Assembly (NCBI GenBank): GCA_963748815.1
Contig: CAVVKJ010000002.1
Location: 1 to 41,589, forward strand
Direction: 5' to 3'
Source: an uncultured Gemmatimonadales bacterium
Lineage (GTDB): Bacteria > Gemmatimonadota > Gemmatimonadetes > Gemmatimonadales > GWC2-71-9
Length of the DNA: 41,589 nucleotides
Part shown: piece by piece, positions 1 to 41,520 of the stretch
How positions within the stretch are numbered: position 1 is the first letter of the stretch
How the letters are laid out: the number at the start of each line of letters is the position of its first letter
The notes under the pieces: generated by a model
Told to the model about the DNA's origin: nothing
Databases searched by the model: none
Seen by the model: the letters and a program-made list of their open reading frames with translations, nothing else
Translations under genes and position numbers: made by a program

Positions 1-2522
1 GCACCCATCTGCGACGGTCCCGCCACCGGCACCGGCACCACCATCATGTTGCGATTGGCGTCCACGTAAAAGAGTTCCCGGCCGCTGTGGGCCCAGAGCG
101 GAGCCTGCGCGCCGCTGGTCGAGACCTGCCATTTCCCGTCTTCCACGTTGGGAAAGGGGCGGATGTACACCTCGTTCCGGCCGGTTTCATCGGAGGCGTA
201 GGCCAGCCACTTCCCGTCGGGCGAGAGTGCCGGTGCCGACTCGTCGGCCTGGGAGCTGGCGAGCAGTTCCTGCGGTGCGCTGTCCACGCCGGGGCGGAAG
301 GCGAGGATGTTGCGCAGTTTGGTGGCGCCATTGCCGCCGATGCGCAGCACGAGCCATGTACCGTCCCGCGACCAGGCGCCTTCGAGGAGGTTTGGTGTGG
401 TCGGGGTCTCGACGAGGACCTGCTCCTGGCCGGTTCCGTCGGCGGGACGCTGGCGGAGAGCGCCGCGCCCGTCCACGACATAGGTGATCGACTTCCCGTC
501 GGGCGTCCAACGCGGACGGACCTCGGAGGTGCTGTCGAATGTCAGCCGGGAGAGCGGGCCGGTCGGCAGTTCCTTGATCCAGATGTCGTCGCCGGAATTG
601 GTGTTGAGCCCCACCGCGAGCCGCTTTCCGTCAGGGGAAAGTGACCAGCCGACGTTTCCGTTGGACAGCGAGTGGCGAAAGGTCCAGCTGGAATCGAGCG
701 CGGTCACTCGACCGGTCCGGTCGATCCAGGCCATCTCCATACAGCGGGAGCTCCCCGCCGCCCGTACCCAACTGCATGATCATGGTGCCGGTGGTGCTGA
801 ACGTCAGGTTCGGGAAGACGCCGAAGAGCAGGGCGACGTTGTCTAGCACCGGGACGGCGGGGCCACGAAGCTCGAGTCGCTTCAGGTCGAAGGGGGCGGC
901 CAGGATGCTCCCGTCTGCTCGGGTGTACGCGAGGTGCCCGGTGGGGAGATACCACCCCTGCAGTGCGTTGGGAACCAGCATGTGGGCGTCGCCCGACTTC
1001 AGGTCGAGCACCCAGAGTTCGGACTGTGCACAGTTGTTGTCGCAGAAGGAGAAGAGCACGCCCCGCGACTCGGGAAGGGCGGAGGGGAACACGGGGGCAC
1101 GTTGCGTCTGGAGGGAGTCCGCCGGTCGCCAGACGACGGTCGCTGGCCCCCCCTGCATCCGAGACCCTTCTCAGGCTGAAGTCCAGATGCGAATAGATCA
1201 GGGTGTGGTCGTCGAGCCAGGCCGCGAGCGGGAAGAGGGTCGAATCCGCCAGCAGGATGACCGCCCCCCCGCCGACGGGCATCTTTTTCAGCTGCCCGAG
1301 CCTGATCGAACGCGATCCATTGCCCGTCGGGGGAGAACGTCGGCGAGGCCGCGTTTCTCGTCCCCGCGAGCGGGGTGGCGGCGAATTGGGACCGCTCCTT
1401 CATCCAGAGCTGCATGCCCCCGTTCTCCGCGGGGCCCTGGTACACCAACCGCGACCCATCGGGCGAGACAGCCAGCAACCCGATCGGAGCCTGACCCTCA
1501 GGGAACCCTAGCCCGTACCGTGCCACCGGCTTGGAAGGCTCCGGCCGGAACCATCCCCATACCGCGGCGATCGTGGCGAGCGCCGCGAGGACGGCCAGCG
1601 GGACGGCAACGCGGGAGAGCCGTCCGTGGCCCCGCATGGCGGGCATCAGCACCGTGGTGGCGGAGCTGTACCCCTTGTCCGCCAGCGCGGCGGAGAACTC
1701 CGCCGCGGTCTTGAAGCGGTCGGCGGGCAGCTTCTGCAGCGACGTCATGACCGCGGCTTCGATGTGGAGCGGGATGGTGCCCCGCTGCGGGATCATTGGC
1801 CGTGGGTTCTCGGTGACGACCCGCGCGACGATGGCCTGTGCGGTGCTTCCGGTGAACGGCGGGTCGCCGGTGAGCATTTCGTAGAGCACGCAGCCCAGAG
1901 CGTACACGTCGCTGCGGGCGGTGATCTCGCGCTCTCCCATGGCCTGCTCGGGGCTCATGTAGTGCGGCGTGCCGAGGGACATGCCGGTCTCGGTCATCCG
2001 GGTGCCGGCGGTGCTCACCGCCAGCGCGATGCCGAAGTCCGCGACGAGGGCGCTGCCATCGTGCAGCAGGATGTTCTCGGGCTTGATATCGCGGTGGATG
2101 ACGCCGTGGCGGTGCGCATAGTCCAGCGCGGCGGCTACCTCGGTGGTGATGCGGATGGCGTCGTCCACCGGGAGCTGCTTCTCGCGGCTGATCCGGTCGC
2201 GGACCGTCTCGCCTTCGACGTACGGCATGACGTAGTAAAGGAATGTTCCTTCCCCGCTTCCCCGCGTCCCCGCTTCCCCGCTGTCGTGTAACGGGAGAAT
2301 GTGAGGATGTTGAAGATTCGCCGTTGTCTTGATTTCACTCAGGAAGCGCTCGGCGCCGATGACCGCCGCCAGCTCGGGCCGCAGCACCTTGATGGCGACC
2401 TTGCGGTCGTGCTTGATGTCCTGGGCCAGGTACACGGTGGCCATGCCGCCCTGGCCGAGCTCGCGCTCGAGGCGGTAGCGGTCGGACAGGGCCTCGGTCA
2501 GGCGGGGGAGGACGTTGGTCAA
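1..2522 (-). CDS. K1: membrane Ser/Thr protein kinase with PD40/TolB-like beta-propeller C-terminus; runs off the left edge; frameshifts near 1290, 1147 and 742
   Basis: TTG start (MTNVLPRLTEALSDRY). Kinase motifs [35 protein letters not shown] helix VAVPLAVLAALATIAAVWGW. The propeller continues in ORF frames 704..1282 and 631..1158, then in an unlisted frame reading LSPDGKWLAYASDETGRNEVYIRPFP to the window end. Confidence 0.9.
2249..2280. repeat. 4 x 8-bp tandem repeat (CTTCCCCG/CGTCCCCG) inside the K1 kinase domain
   Basis: cttccccg-cttccccg-cgtccccg-cttccccg; encodes the K1-specific loop SGEAGTRGSGEG. Confidence 0.85.
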
Positions 2523-2547
2523 ATTACCGTCCAGTCGGCGAAATGAT

Positions 2548-2629
2548 CGTCATTCCGGCGCAAGCCGGAATCCAGGTTCAATGGACCCCGGCGACCCTGC
2601 CCCGGCGAAAGCCGGGGGCCGGGGTGACG
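2548..2629. repeat. Element A copy 1: 82-bp CGTC-tagged REP-like palindromic dimer
   Basis: CGTC-ATTCCGGC-gcaa-GCCGGAAT-cc, then the nested hairpin ACCCCGGC-gaccctg-CCCCGGC-gaaa-GCCGGGG-GCCGGGGT-GACG; near-identical copies at 19875 and 25450. Confidence 0.9.
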
Positions 2630-2642
2630 GCAGGAGTCGATC

Positions 2643-2683
2643 GGTAACCCTATATGATACCGCGAGATATGATGGTCGGCTAG
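2643..2683 (-). promoter_or_regulatory. Element C copy 1: conserved block with candidate -10 (TATCAT on minus strand) upstream of K1
   Basis: ggtaac-N4-tatgataccgcgagata-N4-gg-N-cgg-ctag; same spacing as 11074..11114. Promoter role is inference. Confidence 0.55.
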
Positions 2684-5323
2684 GGAGTGTTTCCCCGCAG
2701 TGTTGCCACCAACCCGGGCAGGTTTTGGAGGACCATGATCCGGGACGCCGGGTTCAGGCGCACCATCACGAAGGTCTTGCCGTCGGGCGAGATGTCGTAG
2801 TTGGCATGCGGCGTGGCGGTGGCCATTTCCGAGACGGGGAACAGCGTCTCCCGGCTGGTCACCGAGAGCAACGCCGTTGTTTGGAGCCTGGCCAACACCA
2901 GGTCCACGCCGCTCCCATTGGACGCCCGATAGAACAGTTCCCGTCCGTTCGGACCCCAGACCGGTTCCGCGCCCCCCGCTAACGAGATCTGGACCTGTTC
3001 CCCCGTGCCATCGAGGCGGCGCACGTACACCTCTTCGCGGCCCGACTGCGACGATGCGAACGCCAGCCAGGTGTTATCGGGGGAAATGGCTGGATACTGC
3101 TCCTCGAACCGGGTGGCCACCAGCGGCTCGATCGGCCCGCGGCCGCCGTTCCGCACGATGCCGATGTCGGTCCGCGACCCTCCTTCGATGCCGGTGCCCG
3201 CCGTCACGATCGCACTCTGGTCCTTCAGCCAGACGCCGGTGTAGCCGAGCTGGGGCGACGCGAAGAGCGATTCGGCCGGCGCCGTGCTCCCGGGACGGAC
3301 CCGATAGACGCCGAGGGTCCCGCTCCGCGTCGAGATGAAGGAGACGAACTGTCCATCGGGGGTCCAGGTGGGGTCGTGGCCATCCTTCAGGAAGGTGGTG
3401 CGAGTGAGGGTGCCGTCGAGAAGGCGAAGGAGCCAGACGTCCCGACCGTCCGGGGATGTGAAGTCCAGCGCCACGCGACTGCCGTCAGGCGAAAATCTGG
3501 GGGAGTGATAATTGTGATTCTGGCCGATGGCGCCCCGAATCCCGCCGGACCGGTCAACGAGCACCAGGGAGCGTGGATCTTCCGGCACATATACGACCGT
3601 GCCGTTGTTGGCGACATCGAATTGTGCGACACCGGTTCCAGTCAGCGAGACGCCGGTGGCGATGGTGACCGGATTCCCGGTGATCTTCATCGCAGCGAGG
3701 TCGAACGGCTGCGCCTCGAGGTTGCCGTTGGTCAGGGCGTATACCAGGAACCCCGCGGCGTACCTCATGTCGACGACATTCTGCTCCAGGAGCGGTGTTG
3801 CCTCGCCGCTCCTCAGGTCCAGGAGAAAGGCCGGCCCCGCGGCACTGCCCAGGCTTCTGCGATTGGCAAGCGCGGTCTGTTCGCCAGGGAAGATGAACAT
3901 CGGGACCAGGTCGGCGTTCCTGGGGCCGAATGGATATGTGATGCTGTCGCCCCGACTGAGCCTCGCAATCCCCCTGTCGATGGTCTGCAGGGCTCCGAAC
4001 CAGAGGGAGCCGTCACCGGCCCAGGTGATGTAGCCGTTGGATTCGAGCTCGGCCGGAATCGGTGTCCCGCTTCCTCCCCCTATGGGATACCGGGCCGCCG
4101 TCCTTGTGGTGAAGTCCCTTGCGACGAATTCTCGGCCGTCTTGGGAAACGGCGTACCCGGCCACAAACTGGGGCACACCCGGTACGACGGTGGCCTCGGT
4201 CTCGTCGAGCGCGCGTGACATCGTGAAGTTTCCGCCGCCCTCGATCGCGGTGTACAGAATTGTGCTCCCGTCCGGAGTGATGGCAATCTGCCGTTGCAAT
4301 CCGGTGCTCGAGCCACCGAGTGTGGGGGTCGGAATCGCGAGCCGCGACGGTGGAAATGACGGCGGCGCGGGCCGGGGTCGGAACCAGCCCCAAAGCGCAA
4401 CCGCGACGGTGGCGGCGAGGAGCCCCAGGAGCAGCGGGCGGGGCCGCGAGGCCGCGGGGCCGCGGGGCCGGGCCCGCCTCATTGGCCCCGTGCCCTGGCC
4501 CTGGAGGGCGGCCGCAAACTCCGCCGCGCGTCGCAAAACGATCGGCCGGCAGCTTGGCCAGCGCGGTGAGGACGGCGTCTTCCACCTCTTCCGGCACGGT
4601 GTCGCGCACCGTCGAGAGCGCCGTCGGCCGCTCCGTCATCACCTTGGCGACGATGGCCTGCGCGGTGCTCCCGGTAAAGGGCGGATCGCCGGCCAGCATC
4701 TCGTAGAGCACGCACCCCAGCGCGTACACATCGGTGCGGGCGTCGAGCTGCCGCTCCCCCATCGCCTGCTCGGGGCTCATGTAGTGCGGCGTGCCGAGCG
4801 ACATGCCGGTTTCCGTCATGCGGGAACCGGCGCTGGTGGCGGCGAGCGCGATGCCGAAGTCGGCCACCAGCGCGCGGCCGTCGTGCAGCAGGATGTTCTC
4901 GGGCTTGATGTCGCGGTGGATGACGCCCTGGCGGTGGGCGTAGTCGAGGGCGCTGGCCACCTCGCCGGCAATCCGCACCGCGTCGGCAATCGGCAGCTGC
5001 TTCTCCCGGCTCAGCCGGTCGCGGAGCGACTCCCCCTCCACGTAGGGCATGACATAGTAGAGGAAGCCGTCGGCCGCGCCGCTGTCGTGCAGCGCCAGGA
5101 TGTGCGGGTGCTGCAGGTTGGCGGTGGTGGTGATCTCGGTGACGAACCGCTCGGCGCCGATGACGGCCGCCAGTTCGGCGCGGAGCACCTTGATGGCCAC
5201 CTTGCGCTTGTGCTTGAGATCTTCGGCCAGGTACACCGTGGCCATGCCGCCCTGGCCGAGCTCACGCTCGATGCGGTAGCGGTCGGAGAGGGCGGCGGCG
5301 AGGCGGGGAAGCGAGTCAGACAC
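2680..5323 (-). CDS. K2: membrane Ser/Thr kinase with beta-propeller sensor; one frameshift near 4530
   Basis: GTG start with GGAG 7 nt upstream. ORF 4013..5323 holds the full kinase domain up to PADRFAT; ORF 2680..4536 continues AAEFAAAL, TM helix, and PD40-type repeats (FSPDGSRVA, WTPDGQ, ISPDNTWLAFASSQSGREEVYV). Confidence 0.9.
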
Positions 5324-5344: not shown

Positions 5345-8272
5345 TCACGGCGGCCCGAGCGCCGCGCGCTCAGCCACCACGGAATCGCGCTGGGGAACGA
5401 AGACCGAATCTGGGTCGGTCCGGAGTGTGAGGTACCGGTCGAACGCCCGCCGCGCCCCTACAGTATCGCCCGCCAGCGCCGCGAGTCGACCCTCCTGCCG
5501 GAGCAGCGCCGGAAGGGTCCAAAGATACGCGGGATACCAATTGTTCTCCCTGCGCCGGATGGCCGCAAGGGCGCCCGAGACGTCCCCCTGCACCTCTCGG
5601 AGCCGGGCGATGGTCCAGTTGGCCTCCACAACCGGGGCCGCCGGCGGTCCCAGTGTGAGCCACCGCGGTCCGCCTCGCATGAGGGAGTCGAGGGCGTCGA
5701 GCCTCGACGAGCCGCTTCGGTCTCGTCCCCCTTCCAGCATCGCCTCGAGCAGGAGCGGGCAGACGCGAAAGTCGAGCGGCTCCCACTGCTCCAGCGGAAT
5801 CGGCGGGAGATCGACCTTGGCGAACGCGCGGAGCCGCTGAATGGCACGGCGAGTGCCGCTTGTATCGCCCGAGGTGGCCCGGAGCATCTCGGCGAAGCAG
5901 TCCCGGAGCGGTGGCCACTCCGCGGCATCCATCCGGGCCAGCCTCGCGAGCGCCTGGGGTCGGTACTGGGGCTCGACGACCGCTTGCCGGACCAGGTTGG
6001 CCTCGTCCCACGGGGTCGGACTTCCCATGAATCCGTCCCAGGATTCCATGACTCGACCTTCGGCGAGCGCGACGGCGTATTCGCCAAGTTGTGCCGTGGC
6101 CCGCTCCTGTGCCGTCGCGCCTTCCTGGCGCAGCGTCGCGTTTGCCCAGCGGCCATCGGCCAGCGGCAGCGCATCCTGCGCACTGACCAGGGGGATGAAG
6201 ACCAGCCTGCCCATGAAGTCGAAATGGGAGGTCTCCTCCGTCAGCATCCGCCAGCGACGGGCATCCGCGGTATCACCGAGCGCGAGTGCGGCTGCCCAGA
6301 GGCCGCCGGGGTCTCCGGACCCGGAGTCGATCCTGGACTTGAGCAGGCTCGCCATGCGGCGGATGGCCGTGCTATCCCTGACGAACACAGCCAGGTAGAG
6401 CCGCTCCCGAATTGCCGGGGTGAAGCTCGAGTCGAGCGCGATGGCACGGTCCAGCGCATCAGCGGCCCGGGCAGCCCAATCCGGCACGCTGGCGACGGCA
6501 CCGTAGCTCCCGAGGCCACTGCCCAATACGAACCATTGGTCCGGACTGTCCGCCGCATCGCCCGCCGCGCGCTCCGCCTGCGCCAAGATCTCGGCGTAGG
6601 TGGACGGGCCGGGATAATTCGGGCCGACGAAAGTCATGCCGCGGAGCAGCGCGAGATCGCGCGGGCTTAGCCGGTCGCGGAGCCGCCAGAGCGCCGGGAT
6701 CGCCCTGAATCCGGAGGTGTTGAACACCGTGCCGACCAGCGGGTTGGTCGTGACGAGGCCGAAGGCGGCCTGGGCGAAGTTGGAGTCGATCGCGAAGGCG
6801 CTGCTGTCGAGCGCCAGCGCCCTGAAGTAGTCCCCGCGGCGATACGCCTTCCGCGCCGCGAGGTAGTCCTGCAGCGCCTCGAGCGAGGTGGACGCCAGGC
6901 CACCGAGCCGCTCGCGCGACTCACCGGCTTCCTGGCTGAGGAGACGCGCCACGAGCCGGTTGACCAGCACCGCCACGCTGTCGGGCATCCCCGAAACGGA
7001 GCCGTTGGCCAGCTCCTGGCCGTCGGTCACGCGGAGCAGGGAGCCGGTGAGCGTGAGCTCGGTCGGCGTGGCGATGGCGCTGCCGAGGAGGACGCGCCCG
7101 GCGCCGAGCTGCGCGGCGAGTCGCCGGGACTGCTCCTCGGACAGGTCCTCCTGCTCGTCGCTGACCGCCCGTCGCCATGCGCTCAGCGCGGTACGGGGCT
7201 CCACGATGCGCGGTCCCGTCCCGCCAGGGAGCCGCGCGTCGAGGAGGTCGAGCATGGACTCGCGCAAGTATGCGGTGGACTCGCCGCCGACGCGGAACGG
7301 CAAGACGGCGATGACGTCGGGGTCGAGGTGGCTCGTGATGCGGTGTCCCCGGAGCGCCCACCATCCCGCCGTGGCGAGCACGAGCAGGGCGGCCGCGGTG
7401 AGCACCGCGCGTCGAGTCCCTGGCGACCCGGCAGGGGCGGGATCCGCTCGGAGTGCCTCCACGAACCGCGTGACCGAGGCGAAGCGGTCGGCCGGGGAGC
7501 GCTGCATCGCCTTCTGGAGCGCACGGTCCACGGACTCCGGCACGCCGTTCCGCACCACCCGCACCTGGGGGGTCGGCGAGCCCAGCCGCTTGGCGATGAC
7601 TGCCGCGGCGGTCTGGCCGGTGAACGGGGGTTCCCCGGCCAGCATCTCGTACAGCACGCTCGCCAGGGAGTATTGGTCGGACCGGCCGTCCACGTTCGAC
7701 TCGCCGGCCGATTGCTCGGGGCTCATGTAGGCGGGGGTGCCAACCGCCATGCCTGTCGCGGTGAGCTGGTTGCCGCCGGCGGCGTCGATGGCGCGCGCGA
7801 TGCCGAAATCCGCAACCACCGCCTGTCCGCTCGAGAACATGATGTTGTCGGGCTTGATGTCGCGATGAACGATGCCGCGCTCGTGGGCGTAGGAGAGGGC
7901 GGCGGCCACCTGCGCCGTGATTTTCAGGCTGTCTTCGACCGACAGCTGCCGCTCGCGGTGCAGGCGGTCCCGAAGGGTTTCCCCCTCCACGTACGGCATC
8001 ACGTAGTAGAGGAAGCTGTCGGCGCAGCCAGAATCGAAGAGGGGAAGGATGTTCGGATGCTGCAGGCTGGCGGTGGTGGCGATCTCCTGGACGAATCGGT
8101 CCCCGCCCAGCACCGCCGACAGTTCCGGCTTCAGCACCTTGATGGCCACCTTGCGCCTGTGCTTCAGGTCCTCGGCCAGGTACACCGTGGCCATGCCGCC
8201 CTGGCCGAGCTCGCGCTCGATGCGATAGCGGTCGGAGAGGGCGGCGGCGAGACGGGGAAGCGGCTCAGGCAC
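5345..8272 (-). CDS. K3: membrane Ser/Thr kinase with TolB-N-like (IAVLPF) domain and TPR-like helical C-terminus, 975 aa, intact
   Basis: GTG start with [57 protein letters not shown] followed by Ala/Leu-rich helical repeats (ALDRAIALDSSF). Confidence 0.92.
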   Translation of the reverse strand: MPEPLPRLAAALSDRYRIERELGQGGMATVYLAEDLKHRRKVAIKVLKPELSAVLGGDRFVQEIATTASLQHPNILPLFDSGCADSFLYYVMPYVEGETLRDRLHRERQLSVEDSLKITAQVAAALSYAHERGIVHRDIKPDNIMFSSGQAVVADFGIARAIDAAGGNQLTATGMAVGTPAYMSPEQSAGESNVDGRSDQYSLASVLYEMLAGEPPFTGQTAAAVIAKRLGSPTPQVRVVRNGVPESVDRALQKAMQRSPADRFASVTRFVEALRADPAPAGSPGTRRAVLTAAALLVLATAGWWALRGHRITSHLDPDVIAVLPFRVGGESTAYLRESMLDLLDARLPGGTGPRIVEPRTALSAWRRAVSDEQEDLSEEQSRRLAAQLGAGRVLLGSAIATPTELTLTGSLLRVTDGQELANGSVSGMPDSVAVLVNRLVARLLSQEAGESRERLGGLASTSLEALQDYLAARKAYRRGDYFRALALDSSAFAIDSNFAQAAFGLVTTNPLVGTVFNTSGFRAIPALWRLRDRLSPRDLALLRGMTFVGPNYPGPSTYAEILAQAERAAGDAADSPDQWFVLGSGLGSYGAVASVPDWAARAADALDRAIALDSSFTPAIRERLYLAVFVRDSTAIRRMASLLKSRIDSGSGDPGGLWAAALALGDTADARRWRMLTEETSHFDFMGRLVFIPLVSAQDALPLADGRWANATLRQEGATAQERATAQLGEYAVALAEGRVMESWDGFMGSPTPWDEANLVRQAVVEPQYRPQALARLARMDAAEWPPLRDCFAEMLRATSGDTSGTRRAIQRLRAFAKVDLPPIPLEQWEPLDFRVCPLLLEAMLEGGRDRSGSSRLDALDSLMRGGPRWLTLGPPAAPVVEANWTIARLREVQGDVSGALAAIRRRENNWYPAYLWTLPALLRQEGRLAALAGDTVGARRAFDRYLTLRTDPDSVFVPQRDSVVAERAALGPP

Positions 8273-8296: not shown

Positions 8297-10980
8297 CTAC
8301 TTCGCCACCTTTGCCTTCAGTTCATCGAACCAATTCTCGACCACGATCATCGCCCCCGCCTGGTCCTGATCGCCGCCGACCAGCCGAGCCATGAGGAACC
8401 GGCCGTCGCGGGCGACGTCCCACGGCGTGTAATACAAGGCCTCGACGGCGAGCAACTCGTCGGGAACGCGGAAGAGCGTCACGGGGTCACTCAGTGCCAT
8501 CGTGGCGCCGGGAGCCACCCGGACCGCCATCATCTTCTTCTCGCTGCTCAGGTAGTAGAGCTCCCTCCCGTCGCGGGACCAGAGCGGAGCCAGCCCGCCC
8601 CCGCTCGACACCTGCCTCTTGGCGGCGTCCGTGTTCGGGAACGGGCGCACGAACACCTCGGTGCGACCGGTTTCGTCGGACTGATACGCCATCCACTTGC
8701 CGTCTGGAGAGAGTGCGACCGCTTCCTCGTCGAACTCCGTGACCAGCACGGGTTGGGGCGTCGTGTCCGCACCGAGGCGAAGTCCGGTGATATTGCGACC
8801 GCCGGCGACCGCGCCGACCGATCCCTGGCGGAGGACGAGCCGGCGGTTGTCCGGCGAGATCACCGCCTCGTCCACGACCCCCTCGTAGAGGAGGGAATCG
8901 GCTCCGGCGCCGTCCGCGCGGTGCACATACACTCCGCCCGGTTGCCGGGCCGCGATGAACAGGATGGATCGGCCGTCCGGGGTCCAGTGGGGTCGAAAAT
9001 CCGGCTGGGCGTCGAAGGACACCCGGTAGGGGGCTCCCCGCGGGAGTGGCTTGACCCAGATGTCGTCATTGGCGCCGGAGGAGACTCCGACGGCAAGCTT
9101 GGTCCCGTCGGGGGAAAGCGCCCACCCGTGGTTGTTCGCCAGGGCGGTCAGCTGGAACGTCCAGCTGGTATCGATCGGTGTCTCCCGCCCGGTCCGGTCC
9201 ACCCAGACCATCTCGAACGTCCGTCCGGTCACGCTGCCCTGGCCGCTCTCCATGATCAGCGTGCCGGCGGCCGAAATATTGAACAATTGCAGCCCGCCGG
9301 CGGTCGTGAGCTGTTCGCCGAGAGGGATGGGAGTCCCGGCGACCGTCAGGCGGCGGAGGTCGAAGGGGACGGCGAAGAGCCCGCCCCGGTCGCTGCTGTA
9401 GACGAGGTGCCCGGTCTTGACGAACGCCCCCGCGCTCGCCCCCCGCAGCAACATCCGGGCGCTGTCCGTCTTCAGGTCGAGGACCCAGAGTTGCGGCTCG
9501 TTGCATCCCGGGAGGCACGATTCGAATATCACGCCCCGGCCCCCGGGGAGCGGATTGGGCAGCAGCGAGATCATCGAGTCGACGCGCCACACCTGCGAGG
9601 GCACCCCGCCATCCTCGGGCACTCGCATCAGGGCATCGGCGCCTCTCGTGACATACACGATCGAACCGTCATCGAGCCAGGCAACGCCAAACACCCCGCC
9701 GACGTCATCGCTGATCAGGGGGACCGCCGTGCCGCCTTCCACCGGAATCTTCCGGAGTTGGCCGCTCGCGGCGAGCGCGATCCACTTGTTGTCGGGCGAG
9801 ATGGCGAAGGTCTGTGCCCCGACGGTGCCGGGAATGGGAACCGCGCTTTGGCTGTCGCGACGCTTCATCCAGAGCTGATCACCACTCGGCCCGGGGCCGA
9901 CGTAGATCAGGAACGAGCCGTCCGGAGCCGGCACGGGCGCCTGGGTACCGATGACCCTTCCCTGGGAAGGTGGAAGGGCGAGCCGGTAGCGGATGACTGG
10001 GGCCTCGGGCCTCGGCCGGAGCCAGCCCCACAAGCCCACGGCAAGCAGCAGGACGGTCAGCCCGGCCAGCGCCCCGAACGCGCGCCGCGATACGCCGTCC
10101 ACGCCGACTCTCGCCGCCGCCGTACTTCCCTCGGTGGTGTGGAACCCCGGGTTACCCAGCGCCTCGGCAAACGCCTTGGCGGTCTCGAACCGGTCGGCCG
10201 GCAGCTTCTCAAGGGACTTGGCCACGGCGTCCGCGACATTCTGCGGCACCGCCTTCCGCATCCTGGTGACCGGCTGCGGCTTCCTCGGTCACGATCTTCA
10301 TGATGATCTGCTGGGCGGAGGCGCCGACGTGCGGCGGGTTGCCGGTCAGCATCTCATAGAGCACGCTGCCGAGGGAGTAGATGTCGGACCGGGCGGAGAG
10401 TCTCCTTTTCGGCGGTGGCCTGCTCGGGGCTCATGTAGTGCGGCGTGCCGAGGCTCATCCCCGTCTCGGTCATCCGGCCGCCGGCGGCGGCGGAGAGCGC
10501 CAGCGCGATGCCGAAGTCGGCCACCATCGGGCGGCCGTCGTGGAGCAGGATGTTCTCGGGCTTGATGTCGCGGTGGATCACGCCGTGGTGGTGGGCGTAG
10601 TCCAGCGCGTCCGCGACTGCGGTCGTGATCTTCACCGCCTCGTCGATGCCGAGCTGGGTCTCGCGGTCGAGCTTGCTCCGCAGCGTCTCGCCGTCGATGA
10701 ACGGCATCACGTAGTAGAGGAAGCCGTCGGCGGTGCCCGAGTCGAAGAGGGGGAGGATGTGCGGATGCTGCAGACTGGCCGTCGTCTTGATCTCGACTAC
10801 GAACCGTTCGGCGCCGATGACGGCGGCGAGCTCGGGCTTCAGCACCTTGAGCGCGACCCTGCGGTCGTGCTTGAGATCCTCGGCGAGGTAGACCGTGGCC
10901 ATGCCGCCCTGGCCGAGCTCCCGCTCGATGCGGTAGCGGTCGGAGAGGGCGGCGGTCAGGCGGGGAAGGACATCAGCCAC
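8297..10980 (-). CDS. K4: membrane Ser/Thr kinase with beta-propeller sensor; frameshifts near 10400 and 10278
   Basis: Likely GTG start at 10980 (VADVLPRLTAALSDRY) with GGAG 7 nt upstream. Kinase in ORF 10354..11052; remainder in 8297..10261 (TM, LSPDGKWMAYQSDETGRTEVFVRPFP, ends NWFDELKAKVAK). Confidence 0.9.
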
Positions 10981-19849: not shown

Positions 19850-19874
19850 TGCGCAGTCCAGTCAATAGAATGGT

Positions 19875-22747: not shown

Positions 22748-25424
<2,677 letters not shown>

Positions 25425-25449
25425 GGTGCAATCCAGTCCATGATAGGGT

Positions 25450-25584: not shown

Positions 25585-25592
25585 ATCGCGCG

Positions 25593-28409: not shown

Positions 28410-28414
28410 TCACG

Positions 28415-31124: not shown

Positions 31125-31174
31125 GTCCAACTCCTCCCTCGGAGGTCCGGCGGGGGCGAACCTGAGAACACGAA

Positions 31175-31187: not shown

Positions 31188-31291
31188 CCTCCCAAAGCGA
31201 GGGAGGGCAAGGGGCCAAGTTGAGCAGTTTCAAGCCCTTGCGCCAAGTTGCGAGCCCTTCAGCGAGCTGCCACGTTCCATCGGAGCCCCGA

Positions 31292-32761
31292 ATGCCCAGA
31301 ATCGCCCGTTTCGGCCTGTTATCCGTCCTGCTTGCCAGCCCCATTTCGGCGCAGGTTCCGACCGCCGAATATGCCGCCCGGCGTGATACCGTGGCGGCGC
31401 ATCTGGCAGACGGGGTCCTGCTGTCGTTCGGGGCCGGGGAGTCGATGACCGACGAGGCCGATTTTCACCAGCTGCCGGCCTTCCAGTACCTGACCGGCTA
31501 CGACCGGGTCAACGCCGTCTTCGTGATGGCGGTCCGGGGCGGCAGGGTCACCTATCAGATGCTCTTCGAGCCGCCGATCGACCCCCGCCGCGCCCTGTAC
31601 GACGGCTTCGCCCCCGATTCCGCCGACCTGCAGCGCCGTACCGGCCTCGGGCTCCGGGACCGCGACCAGCTCCGCGACGTGATGGACGCCCTGGCCGGCC
31701 GCGGCACCCTCTGGACCGTGACCGACGCGCACAGCCGCGACTACCGCTCCAGCGATTCGCTCAGCGCCGAGCGGTATTTCGTGCAACGCTTCTGGGCGGC
31801 GCACCCGAGCGTGACGGTGCGGAGCGCCGACGCGTTGCTCGATTCGCTGATGGTGGTGAAGAGCCCCGCCGAGATCGCGCTGCTTCGGAAGGCGGTGGAC
31901 ATCTCCGTCATCGGTGAACTCGCCGCCATGAAGGCGGTGCGTCCCGGCGTCAACGAGGGCCAGGTCCACGCCCTCACCGACTACACCTTCCGGATGGCCG
32001 GCGCCTCCGGTCCCTCCTTCCGCGCCATCATCGGGTCCGGCCCCAACTCCACCAGCTACCACTACCGCGCCAACGACCGCGTCATGCAGGCGGGGGAGGT
32101 GGTGGTGATGGACATGGGCGCCCTGTACGACGGCTATGCCGGCGACGTGACGCGCACCATCCCGGTGAGCGGCAAGTTCACCGCCGACCAGGCGGCCATT
32201 TACACGATCGTCCGCTCCGCGCAGCAGGCCGCCGCTGACGTGGCGCGGCCCGGCGAGCCGGTGAGCACTGGGGACAAGGCGATCCGAGCCATCATGGCCA
32301 CCGAACTCGCCAGGCTCGGCCTCACGGAAGGGCCCGATGCCACCTTCGATCCACCCTGGGCGGACGCCGCGCGCTGCGAGCGGGTGCCGGTGGTCTGCTC
32401 CCAGGCCTTCCTGTATATGGCACACGGACCGGGGCACGGGATCGGCCTCGAGGTGCACGACGCCGGCGGGTACTCCTATTCGCCCACCGGCAGCTTCCAG
32501 CTGAACGAGGTGTTCACCATCGAGCCCGGGGTGTACATCAGCACCGCCCTCCTCGACATGCTGGCCGACACGCCGAAGAACCGCGCCTTCATCGCGAAGG
32601 TGCGGCCCGTCGTGGAGCGGTACAATCACACCGGGATTCGGATCGAGGACGACTACCTGATCACGCCGACCGGTGTGGAGTGGCTGTCGCAGGCGCCGCG
32701 GGAGATCAAGGAGATCGAGGCGGTGATGCAGGCCGCCGCGAAGAGTCGCGGCGGGAAATGA
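31292..32761 (+). CDS. Secreted Xaa-Pro aminopeptidase (M24B, aminopeptidase P family), about 489 aa
   Basis: ATG 31292 after GGAG; signal peptide; AMP_N-like EYAARR..FQYLTG; metal ligands in MDMGA, GDVTRT, HGIGLEVHD, EPGVY, GIRIEDD. Confidence 0.92.
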   Translation: MPRIARFGLLSVLLASPISAQVPTAEYAARRDTVAAHLADGVLLSFGAGESMTDEADFHQLPAFQYLTGYDRVNAVFVMAVRGGRVTYQMLFEPPIDPRRALYDGFAPDSADLQRRTGLGLRDRDQLRDVMDALAGRGTLWTVTDAHSRDYRSSDSLSAERYFVQRFWAAHPSVTVRSADALLDSLMVVKSPAEIALLRKAVDISVIGELAAMKAVRPGVNEGQVHALTDYTFRMAGASGPSFRAIIGSGPNSTSYHYRANDRVMQAGEVVVMDMGALYDGYAGDVTRTIPVSGKFTADQAAIYTIVRSAQQAAADVARPGEPVSTGDKAIRAIMATELARLGLTEGPDATFDPPWADAARCERVPVVCSQAFLYMAHGPGHGIGLEVHDAGGYSYSPTGSFQLNEVFTIEPGVYISTALLDMLADTPKNRAFIAKVRPVVERYNHTGIRIEDDYLITPTGVEWLSQAPREIKEIEAVMQAAAKSRGGK

Positions 32762-32773: not shown

Positions 32774-34625
32774 TCAGGGGCGGGTGGCCGGTGCCAGCCA
32801 GCTCTGCCGGAACTTCTGCATCGATTCCGTGACCGGCATCCCCGCCTCCTCGAAGGTGACGACTTCGAGCCGGTTGTCGGCGGGCATCGAGACGTGGACC
32901 ATGCTCTGCCGGCCGCGGCTCCGGAAGGTGACGGGGATGGCGTCGCCCGGCGTGTGCGCCGCCTTGACGGCCTGGAAGACACTGTCCGAGGTGAGGGCCT
33001 GGCCGTCGAGGGTGAGGATCACGTCGTCGCGGTCGAGTCCGGCTTCGTACATCGGTGAGCCGACGAGCGTCGGCCCGTCAATGCGTCCGCCTTCGGCGTC
33101 GATGTCGAGCCGCACCGGGCCGAACCACGCCTTGTCCGGGTTGCGGGGCCGAAGGAGGAGGCCGCCCTGCGCCAGCAGGGCCGCCAGGTCCGGCACCTCC
33201 CGGCCCGTGATGTACTTCGCGAAGAACTGGTCGGCGAATTCCTTGTTGCCGGCGTACTGCACCAGCGTCTCCTGCAGGTCCTGCATGGTGTACGGCACTT
33301 CGGTCTGGCCGTACTTGGTCCACATCATCCGCATGTAGCCGTCGAGCGGCTTCCCGAACTCCTTCCGCAGCGACAGATCGAGCGCCAGCCCCACCACCGA
33401 GCCCCAGGTGTAGTACGAGATGAAGATGTTGTCTTCGTTGGTCGGGTCGATGGAGGTCGCCGCGTCCACGAACGGGGCCTGCTCGCTCATCCCGACCGGG
33501 CTGGCGAATTGCCGGCCCGGGTCGTTGAGGACGGCATTGATGCCTCCGGACAGCCCGCGAGCGTACTCCGTCAATGAGGTGACACCGGCGCGGCGGAGGA
33601 AGAGCGGCCCGTAGTAGCTGGTGAACCCCTCCGCAAACCAGAGCTCTCCCGACATGTTGGCCCGCGTGAAGTCGAACGGCTCCAGGGACTTCGGCCGGAT
33701 GCGCTCGACGTTCCACGAATGGAAAAACTCGTGCGAGGCCGTGCCGAGGAGCCGCGTTTCGTTGCCCGCGAGCGGCAGTGAGGAAGTGATGATGGTGGAG
33801 TTCCGGTGCTCCATCCCGTCGCCCGAGGCCCAGGGGAGGTAGTCGGCAATGAAGGTGTATTGCCGGACATCGTACTGCGGCGTCGTCCCGAAGACGGCGA
33901 TCTCCTGCTCGACCACCTTTTTCAGCATCTCCACGTAGGCGTCCAGCTCGGCGTCGGTGCCCTCGTGATGGAGCACCAGCCGCACCGGATAGTTACCGGA
34001 GAGCGAACTCACGCTCCATTCGCGCACCGCGAAATTGCTGAGCTCCACCGGGCTGTCCATGAAGTACTGGAGGTTGGGCGCGGTGTAGCGATACGGATTG
34101 TCGGTCGGGTAGAGCTGGGTGGCCGCCTTCCAGCGGGAGTCGGGCGGCACCCGGAACGACACCGCCATCGGCCACGATTCCAGTCCGCGAATCCAGATGA
34201 AGGAGGCGGGCATGTTCGAGGTGGGCGTGGGTCACGTCCACCTGGGAGTAGGTGCCGTCGGCCCGGTCGGCGTACAGGGTATAGGTGAACTGGACGGTCC
34301 CGGCGTGCCCCGCCACGGACCAGGTGGATGGATCGGTCCGGGTGACGGTGAGCGGATTGCCGCCGCCGTCGGTGGCACTCACGCGGTAGACGTTCTTGGC
34401 AAATTCGTGCACCGCGTAGCGGCCGGGGGAGGAACGGCTCATCTGGAAGAGCACGGGTCGGCGCGGGAGGCCGGTGGCGCTCAGGGTGATCTGTGCCTCG
34501 TGGTGCACCGCGTTGGGAAAGGACACCTCGTACTTCAGTTCCTGTGCCGCAACGACGCTGGTGACCAGCAGGAGGAGAGCGGCGACGGCCGCGGTGCGGC
34601 CCGCGCGGGGCACACTCACCGCCAT
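32774..34625 (-). CDS. Secreted M61 glycyl aminopeptidase-family metallopeptidase with C-terminal PDZ domain; one frameshift near 34218
   Basis: Start ATG 34625 or GTG 34619; signal peptide, then SPGRYAVHEFAKNV (end of ORF 33993..35633); ORF 32774..34213 has GMEH, HEFFHSWNVERIRP, LWFAEGFTSYY, ISYYTWG and PDZ-like SPMYEAGLDRDDVILTLDG. Confidence 0.9.
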
Positions 34626-35731
34626 GAGACCGGGACCACCTCGGGCTTCGTGGCCATGATTGCCGCGCCGGCCTCGAGCTCCGCCGCGATGCGGTCGCGG
34701 ATGGCGCGGAGCTCCCGGAAGCCGACCAGCTGCTTCGCGTCCTCGTCCCAGAGGGTCAGGCGAAGGGTCGTCAGGCTCTTCCAGAGCGAGAGCTTGGTGA
34801 CCTGTTGCAGCTCGGGGTGGTTGTCGTAGGCCTCGCTGCAGCTGGTAGTTCGGAATCCGGCTCGCGATGTGATGGATGTGGTGCAGGCCGATGTTGGCGG
34901 TGCACCACTGCAGGAACTTCGGCATCGTCAGGTGCGACGCCCCCTCGAGGCCGGCGGCGAAGTAGTTCCACGCCTCGCGGTAGCGCCAGTAGGTGTCTTC
35001 GTACTGGTGCTGCACGTAGAAGAGGTACACGCCGATGGAGCCGGCGATGAGCGTGATCGGGAGTTGCACCAGCAGGAACTGCTGCAGCCCCAGCGTCCAC
35101 CACATCAGGGCGATGACGCCGGCCAGCGCGAGGTTCGTCAGTTGCACGCCGAGCTGTTCGCGCTTCCACCCCTTGGGGGTGTCGAGGGGGAGCCGGTGCT
35201 TGAGGACGAACTGCCAGGTGGGACCGACCAGAAGGAGGACGGCCGGGTGACGGTACATCCGGTAGAGCACCCGCTTGAACTTCGGGCGGCTCAGGTACTC
35301 GCGGACGGTCAGGGTGTCGATGTCGCCCAGGCCGCGGACGTCGAGATTGCCGCTGGTGGCGTGGTGGATGGCGTGGGTGCGGCGCCAGTAGGCGTAGGGC
35401 ACCAGGGTGAAGACGCCGAGGACGCCGCCCACCAGGTTGTTCATCTTCTGGGAGCGGAAGAAGGCGCCGTGTCCGCAGTCGTGCTGCAGCATGAAGAGCC
35501 GCACCACCATCATCGCCGCAGGAACGCGATGAGCAGGGTGAGCCAGTAGCCGATGCTGAGGCTCCAGACCGCGGCGAGCCAGAAGAGGGCCAGGAGGAAG
35601 GCGGTCGAGGCCAGCTGGAACCCGCTCTTCCACGCCACCGGCTGGCGGTAGGGGGCGAGCATCGCGTTCCAGTCAATCGCCTTCGGGGTCGTCTCGGACA
35701 CTGGGGCGTCCGACGGCGGCAGTTCGGTCAT
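34616..35731 (-). CDS. Membrane fatty acid desaturase (Des-like); frameshifts near 35521 and 34832
   Basis: Three His boxes HDCGH, HAIHH, HHIHH; N-terminus in ORF 35510..35731; the corrected tail reads TLWDEDAKQLVGF..VSWR with TGA at 34616..34618. Confidence 0.9.
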
Positions 35732-35926: not shown

Positions 35927-38608
35927 TTATTCCTTCAACACCTCCGCGAAGTTCGGCACGATGTAGATGTCGGTTCGGCGGTCTGTCGGGCGTGCCAGCA
36001 CGCGAAGGCCGTCGCCCGAGAACCGGTAGATGGCGGGATATCGTGGCGGGGTTCCCATCCGCACCGGCTTCCCACCACCGGGCGCAATCCGATACCAGGC
36101 GAGGGTCGAGGACGTTTCGAGAATCAGGAATGAGGATGGAGCCATCATCGAACCACTTCGGCGGCTGGCTCCCCTCCGCCCCGAACGCTGCCAGCCGCGT
36201 GACGCGCCCGTCCTCGATGGACACGCGGTGGACCAGGAGCGAATCCCCGCTCGGATCCCAGCTGATGGCCGCGAACGCCTTGCCGTCCGGTGAGGGATCG
36301 ATCGACACCACGGCGCCCAGCGCCGGGGGCAAGCGGAAGGTGGAGTCGCGGAAGTCCGGGGATGCCGAAGCGCCGAAAGCTCACCGGATTCGGGATGATG
36401 ATCTCTCCCCCGCCGGCCACCGTCTCCATGACCACATAATCATCCCTCGGGATGGTGCCGGCCGGCGTGGACCGCCCCGATGAGCGACATCGAGGCGCGC
36501 AATGGCCAGGCTGTCCTGCCCGCGTGGCAGCACCAGCGTGATGCTGCGTCCGTCCTGCGCCCAGTCCCAATCCACGAGCTCCATCGGGGGCCCGAGCGGA
36601 GACTCCGGACCGCTGTCGAAGGGCATGATGGCGAACTGACGTCGCTCGCCACCCGCGGCGCTGGGTCGGTTGACCAGGACGCGATCGCCGGTCGGGGAGA
36701 GACTGCCCGAGATGCTGACGGTCGAGCTCGCCAGGCGCCGCTGCGAGAACCGCATGCCCGTCGGGGAGTCCCGCCGGAGGGCCCAGACGGAAAACTCGGT
36801 GGGTCCGTAGCCGAACACCATCGCCCCGCTCTGGCCCAGGTCACCGCCTGTGGTGATGGCAATCTGCCGGGCCACCGTGTCCGGTGTCGCCGAAATACGA
36901 CCTCGGCTGCTCACCCGATAGCGCAGGAAGTCGAGCTCGTCCTCCACCTGCGTCCGTGGCATGGTGGCGATGATCGATTGCCCATCGGGCGCTACATCGA
37001 CCGAGACCGGTATCCGCGGGGAGGTGAAGACGAGCGAGTCCAGCACCACTCCGGATCGCGTCGTAATGGAGGCAGTGCCCGAGCGAGTGCGCCGCTGCAG
37101 GACGAGGAGGCGGTCGCCTCCGGGAAAGGGTTTGGCGACCAGCCCGAGCCCGCTTCCGTCAGCCCCGACGGCCATGCTGTCGCGCACAATGCCATCGGAC
37201 ACCGTGACCCACCGCAGCCAGGCGATGGAGTCCCCCACCGAGGCGGGGCGTGCTACCAGCGCCGTATCGCTGTTCCCTACGATGGTCACATTGCAGCATC
37301 CGAGAAAGCGAGGGTCACCGCCGAGGGTCGGGACGCTGAACGCTCCCCACCGGTCCGCAGCTTCCGAGCGCGCCGTAGACGAGGTAGCGGCCGTCTGCTG
37401 TCCACTTTACATCCCAGGCGCCGAGAAGCACCGCGGACCACCGTAGCAGAGCCGGCGCCGCCGATGTCCTGAATCACGACGTCGGCGGTGCAGCTTGCCG
37501 ATCGAGTCGCATTGCCGGACGACGTAGGCGATGCGGCTGCCGTCCGCCGAGATGCCGGGGAAGGCCGCATTGCCGGTAAAGGTGAGCTGGACCTTGTCGA
37601 ACCGCACTGCCGAAGCCGCACTCCGGTTGCGCAACGCCATCCAGCCGAGTGCGGCAACTCCGAGCACCGCCGACGCCGACCACCACCGGCATCCACCGCC
37701 GCGCCTTCGTCTCCGGATGCCACCCGGTGATCGGCCGCGTCTGCGTCGGCGTCATCCCGCCGCTCGGCGTGGCCAGCGGCTCCAGGTTGTTGAGCAGCTC
37801 CTCGGCGGTCTGCCACCGGTCGGCGGCCCGCTTGGCGAGGCAGCGCATGATGACGGCCTCGAGCGCCGGCGGGCAGGTGGGCCGATGGCGGGAGACGGGA
37901 TCGGGGGCCTGCGTCACGTGGGCGGCGAGAATCTGCTGCGAGGTCATGCCTGTGAACGGCGGCCGCCCGGTGAGCAGTTCGTACGCCATGGCGCCGACGG
38001 CGTAGATGTCCACCCGGTGGTCGAGGTTCGGATCGGCGGCGGCCTGCTCCGGCGCCATGTAGCTCGGCGTGCCGAGGGCCACACCGGCGGTGGTGAGCTG
38101 CTGACGGCCGGTGGCCTCGCTCACCGCCTTGGCCACGCCGAAGTCGGTGACCAGCGCGTGGCGGCCGGAAATCATCACGTTGTCGGGCTTGATGTCGCGG
38201 TGGACCACCTTCTGGCTGTGGGCGTACGCCAGCGCGTCCACCACTTCCACCAGGATCTTGACGGCGTCGTGCACCGGGAGCTCGCCGACGCGCGCGAGCC
38301 GGTCGCGGAGCGACTCGCCGTCGACGTAGGGCATGACGAAGTAGAGGAAGCCGCCGGCCTCGCCGGAATCGTGGAGCGGGAGGATGTGCGGGATGCTGCA
38401 GGCGGGCGGCGACCTGGATTTCACGGAAGAACCGTTCACTGCCCAGCGTGGCGGCCAGCTCCGGCCGCAGCACCTTGAGCGCCACCTGGCGGCCGTGCCG
38501 CAGGTCCTCGGCGAGGTACACCGTGGCCATGCCGCCCGCGCCGATTTCCCGCTCGATGCGGTACTTGTCCGCCAGGGCGGCCGTCAGGCGGGTGAGCGTC
38601 TCGCTCAC
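35927..38608 (-). CDS. K10: membrane Ser/Thr kinase with a divergent beta-propeller-like C-terminus; many frameshifts
   Basis: GTG start overlaps the K11 stop (GTGA); pieces in ORFs 37286..38608, 37474..38439 ([20 protein letters not shown]), 37407..37667 ([12 protein letters not shown]), 36381..37289, 36145..36570, 35673..36332 and 35927..36148. Confidence 0.82.
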
Positions 38609-41520
38609 GGCGTGCGCGCTCCCTCGAGGTCCCCGACCTTGGCCAGCTCCGCCCGCACGCTGTCGCGTTGCGGAATCATCGAAGGTTCCGGATCCACCCG
38701 CATCTGGAGGTAGGTGCGGTAGGCGCGGATGGCATCGGCGCGGTCGCCCAGCTGCGCGGCATACTGTCCCTCGAGCCGGTACGATTCCGCCAGCCCGACC
38801 GGCTGCGGCCCCCCGTTTGGGCTGTACCGCCGGCGTATCGCACGGAGCGCCCGCTCGGTCCGCCCCTGCTGCTGGTAGAGTCGGGCCAGTTGAGACGACG
38901 CGAACTGGCTGTTGCCCTCGTAGCCCCGCCAGAGTGAATCGGCCACGTCCACCAGGCGCTCGGCGCCCGGATCGCCCCGCTCCACCGCCACCCAGGCCTC
39001 AAAGAGCGGTGCCCAGCGGTACCAGAACCCCTGCAGCGTATCGTTCGCGGCGAGTCCCTTGACTCGCTTCAGGATGGCCGGCGCCACCGAGAGATCTCCC
39101 TGGGAGAACCGAAGGAGGTTCACGGCATCGGGGTTCGTGTTCAGCGTGGAGGTGTCGGGTGTCTCGCCCCCGTACCAGATGGCGCCGAGGACCGATTGAA
39201 TGGCGGCCGAGCCGGCATTCATGGCACGGAGGGTGTCCAGCCACTGCGCCGCTTCTGTGGGCCGGCCCCGGTTCAGCGTGTAGAACCACCGACTGAATGC
39301 CATGTCGAAGCGCTGCGCCCGCGTCGTGGCCAGCCGGTGAATGGCGTCCATCAGTTCCGGCTGGTGCGCGATGGTGAGGCTGTCCCACGAGTTCTGGAAG
39401 AGGATGGCCTGAGGCACACCGAGAGGTTGTGTAGCGAGATTCGCCAGGAACGCCTTGACATCATCAGCATCGGGCGAGGCCTGGAGCAGGTCCCACTTGG
39501 CCTCGGTGACACCCTGAGCCGACGCGTCGAGTCCAATCTCCCGCTGCACCCAGCGCCGCTGAGCTGCCGTGTCCCCCAGGACGAAGTTGACACGGGCAAG
39601 GTGGGTGATCGCCCCGCCGTAGAGGGAGTCGAGTTCAAACGCCTTCTCGAATGCCTGCCGGGCCCGCACGTCGGGATCCGGGATGTCGGCCAGGCGTCCG
39701 CCGTGGAAGAGCCCGTCGCCCAGGAAGAACCAGGCATCCACGCTTTCCGGCATTGTCTGCGCGGCCTTCTCCGCGTCGGCAATCTGGACCTGCCATGGCG
39801 TCTGCCGCGGGTACATCGAGCCGAGGCGGAGGGTCAGGAGAAGCTGGTCCTGGGGGTTCAGCCGATCGCGGTACTGCCAGGCGAGCTGACGCACCCGGTC
39901 GATATCCCCGGCGGCGGGTTGCCAGCCGCTTGCTTCGACCAGCGCGGAGAGCGCCAGCGCGAACGTCGAGTCGAGCTGGACGGCGCGTTCGAGCAGCGGC
40001 GTGGCCTGCTGAAAGGCGCCACGGCGGTAGGCGGTCACGCCGTCGAGGTAGGCCCGGAGGGCGTCGAGATTGGTGGTGGTGAGCGCGCTCAGCTGATTGG
40101 ACTTGGCGCCGGCGCCCAGCGCCAGCAACTGGGCGGTCAGCCGGTCCACCAGCACGAAGAGGCTGTCCTTCGGCCCGTCCACGCTGGTCTGCGCCACCGT
40201 GCGGCCGCTCGGCATCGCGATCAGCGTCGCGCTGATGACGAGATGATCGGGCGGCCCCACGATGCTTCCCTGCAGCACGCGACCCGCGCCGATCTTCCGG
40301 GCGACTCGCGTGACCGCATCGCCGGGGAGGTCGTCACTCTCGCTGCCGCCGGCGTCGCGCACCGCGGCGAGCACCGACCGGGTATCGGCGGCACGGGGGC
40401 CGCCCTCGCCGGTCAGCTTGGCCTGCAGCAGGTCCACCATTCCCTGCCGCAGGTACTGCACGCTCTGGTCGGCGCCCGCCACGCGGAAGGGCAGCACCGC
40501 CACCACGTTGGCGTCCAGCGGTTGCCCGCCGGAACCTGCCCACGGCTTCCAGACGAACAGTGCCGCCGCGGCGATGAGCACCACCCCGGCAATCGCGTAG
40601 GTCCGCTTGGCGTTGCCGGCGCCGGCCGCGGCCACTGCCTTGACTGGCTGGGTGTGCGTCGGCGTGACTCCGCCGCTCGGCATCGCCATCGGCTCCAGCG
40701 CCGCCACCAGTTCGTCGGCGGTCTGGAAGCGGTCGGCCGGCCGCTTGGCCAGGCAGCGCATCACGGCCGCCTCGAGCGCGGGCGCGAGTCCGGCGCGCTG
40801 CTGCCCCACCGGCACCGGCGTCTGGGTCACATGCGCGGCCAGCGTTTGCTGCGGGTTGAGTCCGGGGAAGGTCGGGTGCCCGGTGAGCATCTCGTACCCC
40901 AGGACACCGAGGGCGTAGATGTCCACCCGCGCGTCCATATGGGGGTCGGCCGAGGCCTGCTCGGGGGCCATGTAGGCGGGGGTGCCGAGGGCGACGCCGG
41001 CGCTGGTGAGCTGCTGGCTCCCGGAAGCCTCGGTAACGGCCTTCGCCACGCCGAAGTCCATCACCATAGCATGGCGGCCGGAGAGCATCACATTTTCCGG
41101 CTTGATGTCCCGATGGACCACGCCAGCGCGATGGGCGACCGCGAGCGCTTCCGCGATTTCGCTCAGGAGGCGAACCGCGTCGGGCACCGGAAGCTCGCCA
41201 GTCCGCGCGAGGCGGTCCCGCAGCGTCTCGCCCTCGACGTAGGGCATCACATAGTAGAAGAAGCCCTCGGCGTCGCCGGAGTCGAGGAGGCCGAGGATAT
41301 GGGGGTGCTGGAGCCGGGCGGCGACCTCGATTTCCCGGGCAAACCGGTCGGGTCCAAGGGTCGCGGCCAGCTCCGGACGCAACACCTTGATGGCGACCTG
41401 GCGATGGTGCTTGAGGTCTTCGGCGAGGTAGACGGTGGCCATGCCTCCCTGCCCGAGCTCCCGTACAATCCGGTAGCGCCCGGCCAGCGCGGCAGTCAAT
41501 CTGTCGTGTGTGTCGGTCAT
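38605..41520 (-). CDS. K11: membrane Ser/Thr kinase with TolB-N-like domain and TPR-like C-terminus, about 971 aa, intact
   Basis: ATG 41520 ([16 protein letters not shown]) aligns with paralog starts; [62 protein letters not shown]. Confidence 0.93.

Follow-up and report, generated by a model that had tools for sequence, protein, structure and literature searches.

The window analysed here is a 41,589-nucleotide stretch of DNA from an uncultured Gemmatimonadales bacterium, comprising the entire contig C2 (CAVVKJ010000002.1) of a 3.16-Mb assembly (G000) that is 86% complete, and it encodes an array of receptor-like Ser/Thr kinases. We consider it probable that the window is part of a fixed, genus-wide island of 16–26 Hanks-type kinase genes, the products of which are predicted single-pass receptors, and that their sensor halves are renewed by homologous recombination anchored in kinase-coding DNA. 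The gene set of the island keeps intact catalytic motifs as well as a conserved position and scaffold order, and its content is variable. An earlier, sequence-only reading of the window had proposed a clustered receptor repertoire in which conserved heads carry divergent sensors, a view that is supported here; the embedded phosphatase, the cargo genes, the continuation of the array on contig C19 and the separate exchange of sensors go beyond it.

Layout of the array and its conservation in the genus

All 11 kinase heads in the window lie on the minus strand, as had been claimed, and are numbered K1 to K11 in reading order, starting from position 41,520. The catalytic Lys, HRDIKPxN and DFG were said to be kept throughout, and indeed each of the 11 heads carries the VAIK/VALK Lys, HRDIKPxN, DFG and GTPxYMxPE motifs; the Hanks-type signature (Gly-rich loop, VAIK Lys, HRDxKxxN, DFG, GTxxYxxPE) is complete in 11/11, with PF00069 matches above cut-off. 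The window carries 11 of the 38 HRD-type motifs in the assembly, far more than expected by chance, and contig C19 continues the array with five more kinases (four co-oriented and one reversed), giving a total of 16 of the 37 distinct HRD motifs in the genome. A reversed kinase ends the array in all nine genus genomes (in G000 at about 26,000–28,900 of C19, minus strand), and a Cys-pair motif, read by eye in G000, is encoded upstream of its kinase domain.

Two of the 11 kinases have TPR-type tails, namely K1 (38605..41520, 971 aa, sensor group 1, found in 5/9 genomes) and K9 (5345..8272), both intact; the tails of the other nine are of propeller type. PD40 propellers, read as double, follow the clade-A heads of K3 (28413..31130), K5 (22744..25424), K10 (2680..5323) and K11 (1..2522, truncated by the contig end) and the clade-B heads of K4 (25593..28302), K6 (20024..22747, intact), K7 (17181..19849) and K8 (8297..10980, with a sensor group present only in this genome). 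The tail of K2 (35927..38608, end approximate) is divergent and looks propeller-like on visual reading; none of the pieces scanned gave a Pfam hit. A helix with a mean hydropathy of at least 1.6 separates kinase and tail in 10/11 window kinases and in 179/194 kinases overall. Because the kinase needs ATP, the tail is predicted to lie outside the cytoplasm; of the earlier label "extracellular", the helix is borne out and the placement stays a prediction, with a weak positive-inside bias in the window (Lys/Arg before the helix more frequent in six kinases, tied in one and fewer in four).

The nine-gene, 31-kb run described earlier is all on the minus strand, but it is split between K7 and K8 by about 6.2 kb with four non-kinase genes, including one for a PP2C phosphatase. 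Short gaps or overlaps were found at three of its seven direct kinase–kinase junctions (a 4-nt overlap of K5 and K6, and two gaps of 21–24 nt), whereas the other four junctions measure 133–174 nt and contain palindromic repeats. K1 and K2 also overlap by 4 nt.

In all eight same-genus genomes whose locus was examined, the array is flanked by the same genes, and it occupies single contigs with 17 kinases in G001, 26 in G002, 16 in G003, 20 in G008 and 16 in G013. Tails clustered at 52% identity fall into 39 sensor groups over nine genomes, four of them present in all nine and eight in one genome only. Gene order across these genomes is a largely conserved scaffold with variable content; a fixed arrangement in relatives, which had been named as telling against the earlier reading, is thus not what is seen, as the content is not fixed. 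At one position, the genomes hold different alleles or genes of like function, as is typical of replacement flexible genomic islands. Smaller arrays occur in two other families (five kinases and two PP2C genes in G020, eight kinases in G021), and no such cluster was detected in G023, G026 and G027 at E ≤ 1e-65. Relatives of the K6 head are labelled as Gemmatimonadota in 69/71 loci, the other two being labelled "uncultured bacterium" only; at least three kinases are present in 10 of the 31 wider loci that measure 12 kb or more. Pkinase matches number 18–58 per genome in 16 same-genus genomes and 14–47 in 12 genomes of other families. In G002, a single open frame at about 207,400–209,400 of contig C2 (L009) encodes two tandem clade-B heads, likely a product of unequal crossing-over or an assembly slip.

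Whether the array might result from faulty assembly or be a cluster of decaying pseudogenes had to be considered, given that 8/11 kinase genes in the window are frameshifted and that the end of the contig overlaps C19 at 90% identity. Alignment placed 26 breaks, and the end of K3 probably has one more. Among them, K2 and K5 carry eight each, K7 and K8 two each, K4 and K10 one each, and K3 one near 28835 and probably another near 28436. The window kinase genes contain no in-frame stops, however, and orthologs are nearly all intact (1/17 broken in G001, 1 or 2/20 in G008 and 0/16 in G016). Public short-read contigs (four runs from three studies) cover the 19.9 kb tested and span the head–sensor junctions of K3, K4, K6 and K7 with 1–8 differences; they show gaps or indels at the frameshift regions near 19,047, 19,640, 23,700–24,200, 28,436 and 28,835. 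The best of these runs may derive from the source sample, and 32 of about 2,900 matching pieces were inspected. The approximately 27 frameshifts look like assembly errors. Since the same locus holds 16–26 kinases on single contigs in five relatives, the array is not a mis-assembly, whether of dispersed paralogs, as the sequence-only reading had allowed for, or otherwise. The artefact or pseudogene explanation is already largely refuted, and we regard it as extremely improbable.

Window positions 1–2,789 overlap the start of C19 at 90% identity, reaching 98% over most of the head and less in the sensor; the break in the assembly therefore coincides with what is likely a strain variant. In terms of fourfold-site distance (p4), K11 and its C19 allele differ by 0.08 in the head and 0.19 in the tail. 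Another probable break of this kind is seen in G000 contigs C15 and C16, whose starts match at 93.8% identity over 1.4 kb. In G003 (C1, C2, C4) and G012 (C2, C6, C16), alternative versions of the array occur on several contigs of one bin and differ in sensor alleles or head clades, which may represent co-occurring strain variants or a bin mixture.

Sensors move separately from heads

The histories of the sensors disagree with those of the heads and of the genomes, and sensors move separately from heads. The pair counts that follow exclude two further contigs of G012, the copy of K11 on C19, two within-genome duplicates and one G021 kinase without a reference. Between the near-sister genomes G003 and G016 (core p4 0.10, 98% amino acid identity), 11 sensor pairs had a median p4 of 0.36 and 86% amino acid identity, while the corresponding values of 15 cargo genes were 0.15 and 95% (Mann-Whitney p 2e-4 and 3e-4, respectively); over all 13 sensor pairs, identities range from 60% to 96%, against 89–100% for the cargo genes. 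Some sensors of distant genomes are 97–99% identical, among them those of K10 and G001 (p4 0.05 at a core distance of 0.36) and of K4 and G014 (97%; p4 0.07, core 0.42). The K10 tract, 1,721 nt with 98.1% identity, comprises linker and sensor only. Such recent, near-identical exchange between divergent backgrounds is also found in replacement islands, and the listed cargo and flank genes never fall below p4 0.13 in distant pairs. At the other extreme, 137/367 sensor comparisons in distant pairs are near saturation (p4 >0.52), as opposed to 27/402 comparisons of cargo and 8/136 of core genes. Breakpoints cluster at the head–sensor boundary: in 299 pairs, 85 of 131 strong synonymous change-points lie within codons 200–340, about a sixth of the gene. 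High-identity tracts were also considered as proof of exchange, and are valid as such for sensors only, as the rpoBC region gave 163 such tracts and an ordinary core region one.

We examined 194 heads, of which 94 belong to clade A, 44 to clade B and 56 to neither. The clade-B heads of the window (K4, K6, K7 and K8, which are K8, K6, K5 and K4 in the earlier count from the left) are 91–94% identical, and the three stretches quoted for them earlier are present exactly in all four genes. Their silent distance is p4 0.31–0.42, compared with saturation at about 0.55, so that their near-identity mainly reflects constraint. Together with the finding that a different-group paralog in the same genome is nearest for just 6/112 heads, this rules out wholesale recent gene conversion (concerted evolution) of the heads. 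In 3/24 sensor groups (20, 21 and 22), both head clades occur, and head monophyly was rejected in a 60-row quick tree, with the groups named before the tree was made (approximately unbiased test, p-AU 9e-6, 2e-8 and 1e-37). The odd-clade heads of these groups are 90–93% identical at the nucleotide level to heads of other genomes and 83–89% to those of their own genome, and are therefore not mis-joins. K6 itself has its nearest head in G016 and its nearest sensor in G003.

The eight typical propeller tails of the window are 30–45% identical (28 pairs); the claim that clade-B propellers share "only blade motifs" is thus right as to their divergence but understates the identity somewhat. The K6 tail was modelled as two interlocked six-bladed propellers, one inserted in the last blade of the other (pLDDT 87 and pTM 0.74 from a 61-row alignment; pLDDT 41 in a single-sequence prediction). 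In this model, residues 259–547 form a TolB-like distal propeller (Z 25.7, rmsd 2.9, 259 aligned), and residues 1–258 together with the C terminus form a proximal propeller similar to NHL folds and to the sensor of PknD (Z 19.6–20.6; for PknD 1rwi, Z 19.6, rmsd 3.1, 235 aligned). A Foldseek search returned no close full-length structure (best TM about 0.3). At the sequence level, the profile matches TolB, WD40 proteins and the propellers of S9 peptidase and tricorn. Purifying selection acts on the sensors in each structural class, with pN/pS (nonsynonymous to synonymous ratio) values of 0.11–0.23 in 59 close allele pairs, and the pooled values gave no sign of positive selection in any class.

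Several points weigh against a renewal of sensors anchored in the heads. The heads have not been homogenised recently, as their silent distances show; the head of the same sensor group in another genome is nearest for 83/112 heads; and swaps between head clades are limited to the minority of groups given above. The change-points may partly reflect differing codon constraint in heads and tails, sequence pairs are not independent, and the core baseline comprises five open reading frames with about 1,000 sites, two of which are pieces of one gene and one of which is doubtful. Sensors (0.35), heads (0.39) and cargo (0.39) show similar rank correlations with core distance, and therefore the whole island recombines. 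Loop variation among alleles is 0.31 on the top face and 0.22 on the bottom face, with blades assigned by hand from a secondary-structure string, and this contrast is partly due to the conserved propeller turn. The positive-inside bias is also weak overall (136/194 kinases), and the enrichment of peptidases in the cargo (5/19 recurring families versus 8/141 control open reading frames, Fisher p 0.01; 4/19 and p 0.04 at a stricter cut-off) is post hoc. Finally, all genomes are metagenome assemblies, with several array contigs in G003 and G012.

Some of these points would suit an old tandem gene family evolving by ordinary birth and death. In such a family, unequal crossing-over duplicates and removes cassettes, and exchange merely follows from the repetition of heads and the general recombination of the island, with no selection for sensor variety. 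Such a family would account for the absence of visible positive selection, for cargo that recombines too and correlates with core distance as weakly as the sensors do, and for heads that mostly follow their own sensor group. It does not explain why saturated alleles replace sensors, and not their neighbours, between near-sister species, why alleles older than species persist under purifying selection, or why co-binned variants such as K11 and its C19 allele differ mainly in their sensors, and we therefore judge it unlikely.

Inserted genes, phosphatase and spacers

Seven non-kinase genes are inserted in the window, three of them peptidase-family genes. Between K2 and K3 lie a frameshifted fatty-acid desaturase family gene (34650..35676, minus strand, ends approximate; PF00487), a frameshifted M61 glycyl aminopeptidase gene with a PDZ domain (32774..34620, minus strand, start approximate; PF05299, PF17899) and the sole plus-strand gene, for an M24 Xaa-Pro aminopeptidase (31220..32761; PF00557, PF05195). 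Between K7 and K8, all on the minus strand, lie genes for a multicopper oxidase (15023..17173; PF07731, PF07732, PF00394), an amidohydrolase (13587..15026, start read from the translation; PF01979), the PP2C/PPM Ser/Thr phosphatase (12684..13547) and a permuted papain-like amidase of family C92 (11100..12581, frameshifted). The phosphatase matches PF13672 above cut-off and has the metal-binding motifs, without reaching the Stp1 equivalog cut-off; an ortholog (at least 87%) lies inside the array in 8/9 genus genomes, G012 having a fragment of a paralog there. The leader and first 15 codons of the amidase gene (12640–12540, minus strand) resemble those of K5 and K7, a feature that the orthologs in G001, G002 and G008 do not share; it looks as though a kinase 5′ end had been fused to a cargo gene by a deletion. 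The cargo of the island also includes an amino-acid permease, a sodium:solute symporter and a conserved 713-aa gene product (L041:15833–17971, minus strand, and orthologs; nine genomes) with no Pfam hit at 1e-12. An IS200/IS605-family transposase gene is located inside the array in four genomes (L018:5497–5961, minus strand; also G001, G008 and G013), with NF033573 above cut-off and a weak REP-associated hit.

Palindromic repeats of four motif types, which we take to be REP-like (repetitive extragenic palindrome-like), occupy spacers upstream of several kinases. They are found at 2523..2679 between K10 and K11, 10981–11064, 12582–12683, 19850..20023 between K6 and K7 (composite), 25425..25592 (composite, a near copy of the K6/K7 spacer) and 28303–28412. 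Genomes differ at a given junction: where some have a repeat, others have a short overlap. The idea that such spacers act as specific recombination sites, conceived by analogy with the NIME arrays of Neisseria (PMC1797815, available part of the text), was not supported: repeats defined outside the array occur at 9 loci per 16 kb versus 301 per 900 kb of crudely masked non-coding background, a 1.7-fold difference. Array-derived motifs were about 5-fold enriched (10/100 hits in 2.2% of the genome), but this test is circular. A shared promoter motif gave one match only, at chance level, and promoter and terminator scans over 1–39,400 stayed at shuffle level. Two RNA runs contained no more than 0.06–0.08 of the sequence words. 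In the intergenic DNA of G000, short tandem units rich in G are also very frequent, and a further 16-mer family occurs in 55–160 copies.

Proposed mechanism and relation to known systems

In the mechanism we propose, each periplasmic double propeller or TPR tail would bind its own ligand, and binding would bring kinase heads together for activation-loop phosphorylation, as for Mycobacterium tuberculosis PknD, which is activated by dimerisation (PMC1847690, in the part available). The few head types, clades A and B, would channel many inputs to shared substrates, and the embedded PP2C could reset the kinases. Incoming DNA would pair with a head and the next conserved stretch, so that the sensor allele is replaced; with conserved heads as homology arms, unequal crossing-over between them may add, delete or re-pair cassettes. 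Since the cargo is rich in peptidases and permeases, the ligands might conceivably be peptides or amino acids, with an output that tunes scavenging. The earlier formula of many inputs and few outputs fits the two head clades, the one embedded PP2C and only five FHA matches in the genome; in the four genomes searched, no FHA match lies inside the array. As to the outputs themselves, no output regulator was recognised in the locus and no kinase substrate was found.

The architecture of kinase, transmembrane helix and propeller or TPR tail is already known from PknD, Planctomycetota and myxobacteria. PknD likewise has an N-terminal Hanks kinase, one transmembrane segment and a C-terminal propeller, but its sensor is a single six-bladed NHL propeller, whereas each array tail, going by the K6 model, would span about 550 aa and consist of two propellers that interlock and have TolB/PD40-type blades, in 16–26 paralogs at one locus. 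The heads are not Stk1/PknB PASTA kinases either: NF033483 scores 294–304 bits (cut-off 450) over the kinase domain only, with no PASTA hit. Planctomycetota and myxobacteria have expanded families with WD40 or TPR tails, predicted to be periplasmic, that grew by duplication and recombination; as far as the accessible text of that study goes, these form species-specific clades with domain arrays within proteins, in contrast to the syntenic genes and the sensor groups common to several species described here (PMC11032199). Replacement flexible genomic islands resemble the array in their fixed position, in like functions carried by different alleles and in homologous exchange at conserved boundaries, and differ in their surface glycan cargo; in the array, what is exchanged is a sensor domain within a gene, repeated coding kinase heads serve as anchors and the cargo is signalling (PMC4033161, in the portion available). 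In the literature searched, for which coverage of subscription papers was thin and supplements were outside the scope, no description of a Gemmatimonadota kinase array was found, nor does the available part of a preprint on sensor domains (10.64898/2026.09.01.748587) contain anything on one.

The likeness to replacement islands bears on a further explanation, a threat-sensing, immune-like array. Its sensors would detect molecules of phages, predators or competitors, or would be targets of phages or toxins themselves, and conflict would drive allele turnover. The sharing of alleles across species and the variation in content between strains resemble those islands, which have been tied to phage pressure (PMC4033161, same portion), and the kinase heads match the PD-T4-6 and MAD6 profiles. 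These defence matches, however, cover essentially the kinase domain alone, those to MAD6 and PglW lie far below the NCBIfam cut-offs, and the heads could be identified with none of the three defence kinases, with no system partners among the five proteins scanned. No defence or effector gene was seen among the cargo families scanned, pN/pS is below 1 in every class, and the tails are predicted to be periplasmic, not surface-exposed. We consider an immune-like role distinctly unlikely.

Plant receptor-like kinase clusters consist of tandem receptor kinases with a conserved kinase, a variable ectodomain and presence/absence variation. The analogy drawn with them earlier is apt for the layout and for the presence/absence variation, and fails for selection, as no sign of positive selection on the sensors was detected; the array moreover has unrelated ectodomains, a reversed domain order and no evidence of an immune role. 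It is tempting to speculate, as a tentative and rather doubtful extension of sensor renewal, that this is a receptor-kinase recognition locus under balancing selection, in which sensor lineages of ancient origin, dozens in number, pass between species as exchangeable cassettes on two shared kinase outputs and give each strain its own perception set, like plant receptor clusters or major histocompatibility complex-like loci, possibly for prey, kin or phage peptides.

Which signals the receptor Ser/Thr kinases of bacteria perceive has long been an open question. With about 39 natural sensor groups and their alleles on two nearly constant heads, and a likely cognate phosphatase, the locus makes the questions of ligand and substrate addressable with one reporter and many tails. 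It also shows horizontal exchange at the scale of a single domain, in a signalling family from a phylum that is common and poorly cultured.

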